Below are positions 6,962-8,629 of a stretch of 20,872 bases of DNA, piece after piece. The DNA is from a virus (taxonomy: Duplodnaviria; Heunggongvirae; Uroviricota; Caudoviricetes): IMG/VR virus record IMGVR_UViG_2526164630_000021; one strand, given 5' to 3'. The notes under the pieces were generated by a model. That model made no database searches, had not been told where the DNA came from, and saw only the letters and a list, made by a program, of their open reading frames with translations. How positions within the stretch are numbered: the stretch's first letter is position 1; each line of letters starts with the position of its first letter. The translations under genes and the position numbers were made by a program.

Positions 6962-6974
6962 GAGAACTCCTGAT

Positions 6975-6996
6975 AAAAAACCCAGCCGAAGCTGGG
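6975..6996 (-). terminator. Intrinsic terminator downstream of the Ant-like gene
   Basis: Minus strand reads CCCAGC-UUCG-GCUGGG followed by UUUUUU (plus-strand A-run 6975-6980, stems 6981-6986 and 6991-6996). It starts 19 nt after the ant stop and ends just before the K ribosome-binding site. Confidence 0.6.
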
Positions 6997-7015
6997 TCAT
7001 TTCGTTGGCAATCTG

Positions 7016-8020
7016 TTAGTAGTGATGCAGTGAAGGAGGTAATTCTTTGTTCTTAAGTCTTACCCATGCAGAAAGATTCGTTGGTCCGTCTGGCTCATTA
7101 ATATCAATATCTCGCGTGTGATTGATTAAAACGTCTCTCGCCATTCCGATAACATACGAGAACTCATGACCGTAGTCGTAGCATCTGCCGGAATAGTTCG
7201 ATTGAATTTGTTTTAGCGCCGGATACAGTTCGCGGAATAATGCCTGTGAGCGGTTGGCATAATCCCATAGCCATACAAGGCTGTTTGCTTCTTTCGCTGA
7301 AAACTCATTGGTTTTCTTCTCTTGTTTGCCGATTAACTCGCCTTCAAGCGGAACGCGAGCAGCAAGTGACAGAGCTTCGGTAAACTGCTCCTCGCTGATT
7401 TCTTTGTATGAACACCCAAAATGAGATTTCAGTGACGACCACATGGTGATCATCGCCTTCGCCTGTTTTTCTTTTGGCAGAGACTGACCGCGACTCATGA
7501 CGAGTTGTTTAATGGCTTCCTGCTGTTCTTTGGTTATTTTCCCCGGCAACGCCTTTTTAGCTTTGCGCGGGTTAACCACATGGCCTTTAGTCCAGTACTC
7601 GTAGAGCACATCGTCACACTCTTCCTGATACTGGATTACCTTCTCGCGGATTTCAGGGCGGACTTTGTTTGGTTGAATACTTGAAAGCCAAGCCGCAAAT
7701 TTACGAAAGGCAAGACATGTCATTAACTGTTTACCGCCAGCAGAAGGTATTTCGATTTCCGAAATACCTTTGGCAAACCTCTGTTTTAACTTAACAAATT
7801 GAGCAGCCCAAACCATCCCCATACCTTCAACAACAGGCTTCATAGGAACATAAGGCTCATTGTTAATTCCAACCAAAAAGAGATTTGTTCCGTGGAATGG
7901 AACATTGATTGTGCGATCTGCAATTGCTAAACTAGTCATATCAGTTTTCTCGTGGTTAACTGGTAATTTAGAAGCCTCAATGGTTGCAGCCATTGGGGCT
8001 TCGCTGTTTTTAGCGACCAT
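7016..8020 (-). CDS. Putative phage antirepressor (Ant-like), part of an immI-like insert
   Basis: 334-aa ORF with ATG at 8018-8020 and a GAGGTGG ribosome-binding site. Its start overlaps the stop of an Arc-like gene and a Mnt-like gene lies divergent, the P22 mnt / arc-ant arrangement. The region is visibly more A+T-rich than the flanking tail genes (not quantified). Domain assignment (AntA/ORF6N-type N-terminus) is tentative and from context more than sequence. Confidence 0.55.
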   Translation of the reverse strand: MVAKNSEAPMAATIEASKLPVNHEKTDMTSLAIADRTINVPFHGTNLFLVGINNEPYVPMKPVVEGMGMVWAAQFVKLKQRFAKGISEIEIPSAGGKQLMTCLAFRKFAAWLSSIQPNKVRPEIREKVIQYQEECDDVLYEYWTKGHVVNPRKAKKALPGKITKEQQEAIKQLVMSRGQSLPKEKQAKAMITMWSSLKSHFGCSYKEISEEQFTEALSLAARVPLEGELIGKQEKKTNEFSAKEANSLVWLWDYANRSQALFRELYPALKQIQSNYSGRCYDYGHEFSYVIGMARDVLINHTRDIDINEPDGPTNLSAWVRLKNKELPPSLHHY

Positions 8021-8183
8021 TCACCACCTCTTCCCTAACACCTTTTGCCAGCAAACGAACAATTGCAGAGTTCAGAGATATACAGTCCATTTCCGCCAGG
8101 CGGCGAAGGTCTTCATTCAGCCGTGATGGAAGGCGAAGGTTGAGTTTGATATTTTTGCGCTCAGTGAAAAGTGTATCTTGCAT
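8010..8183 (-). CDS. Arc-like ribbon-helix-helix repressor (57 aa), not in the supplied ORF track
   Basis: Hand translation of the reverse complement of 8010..8183 gives MQDTLFTERKNIKLNLRLPSRLNEDLRRLAEMDCISLNSAIVRLLAKGVREEVVNGR*. The KLNLRLP...LNSAIV pattern matches the RHH signature of P22 Arc (FNLRWP...VNSEIY). An AAGGAG ribosome-binding site lies 8 nt upstream of the ATG at 8183, an in-frame stop lies 2 codons upstream, and the stop TAA at 8010-8012 overlaps the ant start. Confidence 0.6.
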   Translation of the reverse strand: MQDTLFTERKNIKLNLRLPSRLNEDLRRLAEMDCISLNSAIVRLLAKGVREEVVNGR

Positions 8184-8289
8184 TATCTAATCTCCTTTAT
8201 TTGGTGCCAAAGTGACGCCATGAAGGCCATAATGCCACCATTGAAATCGTATGGCAATATGGCACCATGATTTTTTTGAGAGATTTGCA
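8184..8289. promoter_or_regulatory. Divergent promoter/operator region between the Arc-like/Ant-like genes and the Mnt-like gene
   Basis: 106-bp intergenic region between divergent RHH repressor genes. Candidate minus-strand promoter: TTGCCA (-35, plus 8252-8257), 17-bp spacer, CATTAT (-10, plus 8229-8234). Nested inverted half-site-like motifs: TGCCA at 8205 and 8233, TGGCA at 8252 and 8260. No clear plus-strand promoter found. Confidence 0.4.
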
Positions 8290-8610
8290 ATGGCCGAAAA
8301 ACAAGTAAAAGACTACGACAAGTTCAACCTCCGTTTTCCTGACGGAATGCGAGATGCTATAGCTGAACGAGCCAAACGAAACGGGCGCTCTATGAACTCA
8401 GAGATTGTTCAGATACTGGAAGATGCCTTGAATGCAGAAAATACTCTTGGGGAAATAGCAGACAAAATCAACAGCGTCTCGGTTCCGCTAAATGTTGATG
8501 CGCTAGTTCAACTTCAAGCCCAAGTGATCGCCATGCAAAAAGAAATACAGGAAAAGTTCAGAGAGCAGAACGAAAAGTTGAGAGAACTGCTAAACAAAAA
8601 ACCCACCTGA
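8290..8610 (+). CDS. Mnt-like ribbon-helix-helix repressor
   Basis: N-terminus ...KFNLRFPDGMRDAIAERAKRNGRSMNSEIVQILEDAL closely matches the P22 Mnt RHH motif (GRSMNSELLQIVQDAL), followed by a coiled-coil-like C-terminus. It is divergent from arc-ant, as mnt is in P22. The ORF track starts at 8251; the ATG at 8290 is preferred by homology, but the start is uncertain. Confidence 0.7.
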   Translation: MAEKQVKDYDKFNLRFPDGMRDAIAERAKRNGRSMNSEIVQILEDALNAENTLGEIADKINSVSVPLNVDALVQLQAQVIAMQKEIQEKFREQNEKLRELLNKKPT

Positions 8611-8617
8611 CGGTGGG
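8596..8617 (-). terminator. Terminator-like hairpin just downstream of L, overlapping the 3' end of the Mnt-like gene
   Basis: Inverted repeat CCCACC (8602-8607) / GGTGGG (8612-8617) with loop TGAC. On the minus strand the stem is followed by UUUUUU (plus-strand A-run 8596-8601), 13 nt after the L stop. The Mnt-like stop codon TGA (8608-8610) sits in the loop. Confidence 0.45.
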
Positions 8618-8629
8618 CATAATCCATTA

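Follow-up and report, generated by a model that had tools for sequence, protein, structure and literature searches.

The insert between tail genes L and K encodes Ant-, Arc-, and Mnt-like proteins

We analyzed a 20,872-nucleotide stretch of viral DNA (Caudoviricetes; IMG/VR record IMGVR_UViG_2526164630_000021), referred to below as the window, in which the tail genes are of the lambda type and lie on the minus strand in the order H, M, L, and then K, I, J. A 1.65-kb insert with 44% G+C (window 6973-8626) lies between L and K, and the exact window sequence is found in Escherichia coli O103:H2 strain 129. The list of open reading frames (ORFs) gives three for this interval, namely 7016-8020 on the minus strand (334 amino acids at its maximal extent; ant), 8010-8183 on the minus strand (57 amino acids; arc-like), and 8251-8610 on the plus strand (119 amino acids at its maximal extent; mnt-like). 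A sequence-only reading of the window had described a Mnt-like/Arc-like/Ant-like cassette between L and K that resembles the immunity I (immI) region of phage P22, and we found all of these elements in place. The composition shift on which that reading had relied is also real, because the G+C content across 6962-8629 is 44.2% compared with 58% on either side, and the G+C content at third codon positions (GC3) is 0.44-0.45 in the insert compared with 0.61-0.68 in the neighboring genes.

When started at the methionine that aligns with Met-1 of P22 Ant, which is also the RefSeq start, the ant gene spans 7016-7939 on the minus strand and encodes 307 amino acids. The protein matches the Pfam families P22_AR_N (1.5e-39; 135.2 bits against a cut-off of 30.7) and P22_AR_C (4.7e-30; 103.9 bits against a cut-off of 22.4), as well as PHROG 245, ‘anti-repressor Ant’ (1e-107). 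In a BLASTP comparison, it aligned with P22 Ant end to end and without frameshifts at 55% identity (E 5e-117), the last ∼110 amino acids being >90% identical. No unrelated family was matched, and with these matches the earlier reservation, that Ant had been assigned mainly from its surroundings, no longer applies. A sequence search of the PDB with Ant gave no match, and no solved structure of a relative was found. An NCBIfam scan of the three cassette proteins returned no family-level match for Ant or Arc and only subthreshold ribbon-helix-helix (RHH) matches for the Mnt-like protein.

Both small ORFs score as Arc/RHH proteins. The arc-like gene (8010-8183, minus strand), the first gene of the arc-ant unit, encodes a 57-amino acid RHH protein that matches PHROG 228, ‘Arc-like repressor’ (8.7e-7), is 30% identical to P22 Arc (pairwise E 8e-6), and is named ‘Arc family’ by RefSeq (WP_001154346.1). 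The mnt-like gene (8290-8610, plus strand), which opposes the late operon, encodes 106 amino acids with an N-terminal RHH domain and a helical C-terminal tail; its product matches Pfam Arc (2.1e-20; 72.7 bits) and is 50% identical to P22 Mnt over residues 7-48 (E 6e-13). Its start is most likely at 8290 rather than at 8251 because the PHROG 1287 alignment begins at the former methionine and because RefSeq WP_001302649.1 has the same coordinates. Side matches in PHROG and Pfam raised the alternative that the RHH proteins belong to a partition or antitoxin system (ParG-, FitA-, or HicB-like). This alternative was rejected, as there is no gene for a partner ATPase or toxin and the only neighbors are ant and the tail genes. 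Further, the ‘partition protein ATPase’ label of PHROG 795/2685 is an annotation artefact, and RefSeq attaches the same label to P22 Mnt.

Both borders of the insert are homologous to those of the P22 region

The sequence-only reading had placed terminator-like hairpins at both borders, and these were found at 6979-6998 and 8601-8618 by a terminator scan, which returned 8 sites in the region compared with 2.2 expected. The border hairpin just after L (8591-8618; stem 8601-8618, then TTTTTTGTTT on the minus strand) aligns to P22 14508-14535, where P22 mnt has its 3′-terminal hairpin, and in both phages the mnt stop codon (here 8608-8610) lies in the hairpin loop. The border hairpin before K (6973-6998, minus strand; stem 6979-6998, then a T run) is the ant terminator, which differs very little from the terminator annotated after ant in P22 (alignment with P22 16012-16035). 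According to the scan, both terminators are oriented to stop transcription in the direction of the late operon, and the expression of K, I, and J would therefore need antitermination of the Q type, as for P22 gene 9.

We next compared occupied and empty junctions, and this does not bear out the earlier statement that L and K are left undisturbed, because the insert changes the ends of both genes. Empty junctions (lambda, 434, phiSTEC1575-Stx2k, and PhiR57_1) read TAA-atccc-ATG, and the occupied junction starts directly after the TAA of L. In the window, L (8630-9325, minus strand; Pfam Phage_tail_L 2.7e-97), the upstream neighbor in the late operon, has a TAG stop that makes it one codon shorter than lambda L, with the lambda-type TAA at 8627-8629. 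At the other end, compared with lambda, 434, and phiSTEC1575, the insert replaces the 5-nucleotide L-K spacer and the first eight codons of K with its own AGGAG, ATG, and six codons. These are supplied by a linker of ∼30 nucleotides (6941-6972, minus strand) that is carried with the insert and is identical in the PhiR12_1 allele; it provides the AGGAG (6971-6967), the ATG (6961), and the residues MLYSNI, where lambda K has MTQTESAI. K itself (6224-6961, minus strand; 245 amino acids; Pfam Prok-JAB and NlpC/P60) also has its RefSeq start at 6961. An alternative K start at ATG 7000 was rejected; it lies inside the ant terminator stem, and the ATG arises from a single base difference from P22. 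Elsewhere in the tail operon, we note that the tape-measure gene (window 9651-12230; L001 22752-25330) is labeled ‘frameshifted’ by RefSeq in the matching genome and is a single open frame of 859 amino acids in the window.

A predicted sar-like antisense RNA and the start of Ant

The sequence-only reading had missed a sar-like gene (7905-8012, plus strand). A candidate Psar (TTGATT 7905-7910, 17-nucleotide spacer, TAAACT 7928-7933, plus strand) lies inside the first ant codons, which by our own reading is also the position of P22 Psar. The predicted RNA (∼7940-8012, ∼73 nucleotides, plus strand) would form two hairpins, the second of which (7971-8002 plus GCTGTTTTTA, plus strand) is a predicted terminator. 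Its sequence is antisense to the stretch between arc and ant, including the ribosome-binding site that serves the 7939 start. The distance from the arc stop (8010) to the Ant methionine (7939) is 70 nucleotides, compared with 68 nucleotides in P22. The fold of the 73-nucleotide RNA from 7940 also resembles that of P22 sar, with two hairpins and -30 kcal/mol (z -6.1) compared with -29.5 kcal/mol (z -5.3). In the 14-bp terminator stem, two pair changes relative to P22 are compensatory and three are one-sided. For the variable, unconstrained triplet of the stem, 24 hairpin variants from IMG/VR show pairing at 74 of 96 positions, against a chance expectation of ∼36. An inverted repeat with perfect arms, TGTTCC-N7-GGAACA (7886-7904), lies in the 5′ end of ant, immediately upstream of the -35 element of the candidate Psar, which the terminator scan flagged on both strands and which may be incidental to the VPFHG coding sequence.

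The ant frame is open upstream of 7939 to an ATG at 8020, which overlaps the arc stop by 11 nucleotides, and there are thus two candidate starts, 7939 (307 amino acids), which is favored by RefSeq and by the P22 alignment, and 8020 (334 amino acids). The 334-amino acid Ant overlapping the arc-like gene that the sequence-only reading had proposed is a defensible candidate, and the arrangement of an ATG over the arc stop is also annotated in modules of Klebsiella, Salmonella, and other E. coli. Among 17 clusters of diverged flanks, the frame through the hairpin continues into the payload in 12 (three of them ambiguous) and is closed in five, as in P22; hairpin-to-ATG spacers of 31, 34, 40, and 43 nucleotides keep the frame, whereas those of 30, 32, and 33 nucleotides break it. 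This evidence for a long Ant is suggestive only, because the DNA of the hairpin by itself determines most of the conserved peptide. We note that an N-terminal peptide, M-x-x-K/R-N-S-E-A-P-x-A-A-T, is common to payloads of the P22_AR_N and Bro-N types and that most diverged modules have an open frame through the sar hairpin.

Candidate promoters and operators between mnt and arc

The control region between mnt and arc (8184-8289) contains two divergent candidate promoters from a promoter scan, Pant on the minus strand (TTGCCA 8257-8252, 17-nucleotide spacer, TG-CATTAT 8234-8229) and Pmnt on the plus strand (GTGCCA 8204-8209, 18-nucleotide spacer, CATAAT 8228-8233), the -10 elements of which overlap. 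A repeat search gave candidate operators of the palindrome-like form TGGYRSCA at 8202-8209, 8233-8240, and 8260-8267, so that three of the 13 such sites in the window fall within 66 bp of this region. The arc gene has a ribosome-binding site, AAGGAG, at 8197-8192 on the minus strand. The candidate Pant -35 element is kept as TTG(A/C)CA in four diverged modules, and PhiR5_1, in which the DNA-binding domain of Mnt is almost the same, retains the control region in its entirety. Another possible Pant, TTGGCA-17-GATAAT (8210-8182, minus strand), was rejected because its -10 element overlaps the arc start codon and transcription would start inside arc.

The cassette is widespread and occurs in more than one genomic context

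Searches were conducted with a 1.8-kb query that included both junctions, and records were counted when at least 80% of the query length was matched. By this measure, the cassette was found in 21 phage records, 19 of which cover the whole query and both junctions, and in 268 of 5,426 complete E. coli genomes. The full-length carriers include the Stx2 phages 1717, F349, and WGPS4/6/8, the phages 2851 and YYZ-2008, and several Stx1a phages. RefSeq names the genes ‘phage antirepressor Ant’ and, twice, ‘Arc family DNA-binding protein’. In inducible Stx phages, the cassette is intact and 97% conserved, and 298 of the 307 residues of Ant are identical in the phage 1717 copy.

Comparison of the L-K junction in relatives showed that 113 of the 165 phage records with related L and K genes, including lambda and 434, have an empty junction, and the insert therefore separates genes that are adjacent in related phages. 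Further, the same cassette is present at 96.8% identity in the nin region of JLK-2012, between ninE and roi, where the homology begins and ends at the two border hairpins (window 6973 and 8626). Its occurrence both there and between L and K marks the cassette as a mobile module. A search of IMG/VR returned 97 stretches with a sar-type hairpin; ∼21 of these are flanked by L and K, and others contain this cassette at a different site or related modules with different payloads.

PhiR12_1 (L003 2617-4629) has a second allele at identical L-K junctions, with an 82-amino acid Mnt-like protein, a 46-amino acid Arc-like protein, a P22-type sar hairpin, and a Bro-N-type Ant; this allele adds a gene for a 178-amino acid ClpP-like protein downstream of mnt (Pfam CLP_protease 1.6e-11). 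In the Salmonella siphovirus vB_SosS_Oslo (L013 2088-3718), a sibling mnt-arc-ant module occupies another position in the tail module, where it follows the genes for the major tail protein, DUF6246, and KilA-N and lies upstream of the tape-measure gene.

Damaged copies also circulate. Some L-K copies in IMG/VR (L028, L078, and L089) match Ant at 98% identity but over its first 192 amino acids only, and in one E. coli genome the cassette is interrupted by an IS5-family element. In Stx2 phage 1717 (L010; alignment column 254), mnt has an extra C compared with the window, H19, and JLK-2012, which would frameshift Mnt; this could be either a real mnt-null allele or an old sequencing error, and the record annotates neither mnt nor arc.

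The carrier prophage in strain 129 is itself defective. At L001 35317-36812, a part of this prophage outside the window, an IS3-family element separates cII from the gene for the large terminase, both of which are truncated, and the prophage lacks the genes for replication, nin, Q, lysis, and the small terminase. Its CI repressor is a LexA-family protein encoded within L001 37220-37933. We note that the prophage adjoins torT and that genes for type III secretion system effectors (NleG and EspJ) follow.

The region as a homologue of the P22 immunity I module

We conclude, with a probability of roughly 85%, that the region is a complete homologue of the P22 immunity I region, termed the ‘ant moron’ in P22-like phages and described there as a fast-changing insert in the late operon (PMC2629481), and that it constitutes a self-contained mobile regulatory module in the tail operon of a lambda-like prophage. 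This conclusion draws on the gene content, order, and orientation, the homology of the five parts, with sar as a predicted one, and of both borders, the foreign composition, the empty sites, and the other contexts. We infer the promoter and operator assignments, the expression of sar, the target of Ant, and any effect on induction. The evidence supports horizontal acquisition of the module, as a moron between L and K, and in keeping with this the insert combines a composition unlike that of its neighbors with its own predicted promoters, at the level of consensus matches, and two terminator-like hairpins.

If the module works as P22 immI does, then, in a lysogen, Mnt made from its own promoter would bind operators overlapping the divergent arc-ant promoter, and no Ant would be made. 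Upon entry of the DNA into a Mnt-free cell, or upon loss of Mnt, the arc-ant promoter would fire, and Ant would be expected to inactivate repressors of the CI/C2 type by non-covalent binding, either those of its own phage or those of other lambdoid prophages; accumulating Arc would then shut the arc-ant promoter again. The cis-antisense sar RNA would pair with the ant mRNA at its 5′ end and restrict its translation, also during Q-modified late readthrough from L to K, and the border terminators would insulate the module from ordinary readthrough and may let the unit recombine between phages. For P22 Ant, inactivation of the P22, L, lambda, and 21 repressors has been reported (PMC3121763, citing Susskind & Botstein 1975).

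Several points weigh against this interpretation or its details. The match of the Arc-like protein to Pfam Arc is a narrow pass (21.5 bits against a cut-off of 20.4), and the Rfam sar family (RF00262) gives a full-length match at 7939-8005 (28.3 bits, E 0.005) that falls below its gathering score of 43. The C-terminal half of the Mnt-like protein fails to align with P22 Mnt, and the formation of a tetramer is therefore only assumed. An alignment of the mnt-arc control region with that of P22 revealed no meaningful DNA similarity, including at Oarc and Omnt; the P22 operator sequences are thus not transferable, and the TGGYRSCA sites that the window has in their place are candidates only. The strain 129 prophage has lost Q and the late promoter region in an IS3-associated deletion, and so the part of the model that involves late readthrough cannot operate in this strain, where only the promoters of the module itself could act. 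Even for P22, the biological role of Ant is ‘not completely understood’ (PMC3121763), and a search of the accessible literature on the L-K cassette in Stx phages returned only generic mentions of ‘antirepressor Ant’ and no study of the L-K copy.

The loss of these functions also raises the alternative that the insert is an inert passenger, i.e. a once-functional immI module that is decaying in a defective prophage and has no present role in strain 129. The prophage has indeed been cut by IS3 between cII and the terminase gene, with the replication, Q, and lysis genes gone, and truncated 192-amino acid variants of Ant, an IS5-interrupted copy, and the 1-nucleotide insertion in phage 1717 mnt are seen in other genomes. 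In the window, however, no damage is seen in any of the three ORFs, in the sar hairpin, in either terminator, or in the control region, and these elements share 97-100% identity with their counterparts in phages able to produce infectious particles. Ant aligns with P22 Ant along its whole length; further, an autonomous module with its own predicted promoters would need nothing of the remaining prophage. We therefore regard a passenger role as improbable. Still less probable, in our view, is that the main selected effect is on the tail operon, with the terminators, the opposing mnt transcription, and the new K start tuning the amounts of K, I, and J. An effect of this kind on the expression of the tailspike gene, which follows ant, has been proposed for P22, and the positions of the terminators, right after L and right before K and both facing late-operon transcription, would suit it, as would the origin of the K ribosome-binding site and start codon in the insert. 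Yet 113 of the 165 related phage records do well without the insert, the same cassette lies in the nin region with no tail gene downstream, and a full-length Ant is kept while its N-terminal domains vary, which argues for selection on the payload.

We also considered two readings that reach further than homology with P22, which we put forward as tentative and rather unlikely proposals. In the first, Ant of this subfamily would be made as a long form whose translation is coupled to arc; in the second, Ant from such cassettes in defective prophages would act in trans on the repressors of co-resident Stx prophages. On the first point, the ATG of the long Ant overlaps the arc stop and its first 27 codons would cross the sar terminator hairpin, so that antisense control would hit a coding 5′ segment and not the ribosome-binding site alone, and mnt-arc-sar would act as a conserved ‘chassis’ on which one antirepressor N-terminal domain can be exchanged for another. 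The second point, if true, would provide an SOS-independent route to the induction of toxin phages in enterohemorrhagic E. coli (EHEC).

More generally, a broad-specificity antirepressor checked only by a small phage repressor would be a plausible link among co-resident prophages, toxin phages included, in polylysogenic EHEC; earlier publications on P22 and on the Gifsy phages have already put forward the idea that antirepressors link prophages. The cassette had been identified correctly, but it is an ordinary and widespread module that is already annotated. The sequence-only reading had called its location and complete three-gene arrangement unusual; this fails because P22 immI is likewise embedded among virion genes, and the same L-K cassette is present in at least 19 records of Stx/EHEC phages. 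What our analysis adds to the current annotation is the putative sar homologue, the homologous borders, the exact junctions with the borrowed start of K, the mobility across several contexts, and the question of the Ant start. Its value is mainly for annotation, in that the full immI module should be labeled, including the predicted, as yet unannotated sar-like RNA, the terminators inside the tail operon, and the insert-derived K start.

Comparison with known systems

The antirepressors under LexA control (GfoA/GfhA/FsoA of the Gifsy/Fels phages, Tum of 186, and AntC of N15) also inactivate prophage repressors in trans and can couple the induction of co-resident prophages (PMC3121763). They are unrelated proteins, and they are controlled by the host LexA rather than by the phage-encoded Mnt, Arc, and sar; the Pfam and PHROG searches with the window Ant gave no match to the families of small LexA-controlled antirepressors.

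The sibling modules of PhiR12_1 (L-K), JLK-2012 and PhiR5_1 (nin), Klebsiella ST11-VIM1phi8.1, and vB_SosS_Oslo share the divergent Mnt-like gene, the Arc-like gene, the sar-type hairpin, and the antirepressor, which always ends in a P22_AR_C domain. They differ in that several have a Bro-N instead of a P22_AR_N N-terminal domain, in their genomic positions, and, for one allele, in the added ClpP-like gene. The copies in Stx/EHEC phages (1717, YYZ-2008, 2851, Stx2a_F349/WGPS4/6/8, Stx1a, and the prophage of O26:H11 strain 11368) are much closer. They show 97% nucleotide identity over 1.8 kb and both junctions, are annotated ‘anti-repressor Ant’, ‘Arc-like repressor’, and ‘Arc family DNA-binding protein’, and differ from the window by point differences only, which are clustered in the 3′ half of mnt and the 3′ third of ant.

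Compared with P22 itself, the annotated map of which shows leftward mnt, overlapping Pmnt/Pant with Oarc and Omnt, arc, the antisense sar, ant, and a terminator, all within the late operon and flanked by gene 16/sieA and tailspike gene 9, the window differs in several respects. The module is carried by a lambda-like siphovirus and is located between the tail-tip genes L and K rather than between 16/sieA and the tailspike gene; sieA, hkcC, and orf59a are absent; the Mnt-like protein is longer (106 amino acids compared with 83), with a C-terminal half unrelated in sequence; and upstream of the P22-type ant start the reading frame continues here to an ATG that overlaps arc, whereas in P22 it is closed. 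Both systems nevertheless have the same five parts, of which sar is a predicted one here, in the same order and orientation, with mnt opposed to, and arc-sar-ant co-directional with, a late operon of virion genes. The RHH domains of Mnt and Arc are homologous, as are the ant terminators and the 3′-terminal hairpins of mnt, and the predicted sar-like RNA has the place and fold of P22 sar.

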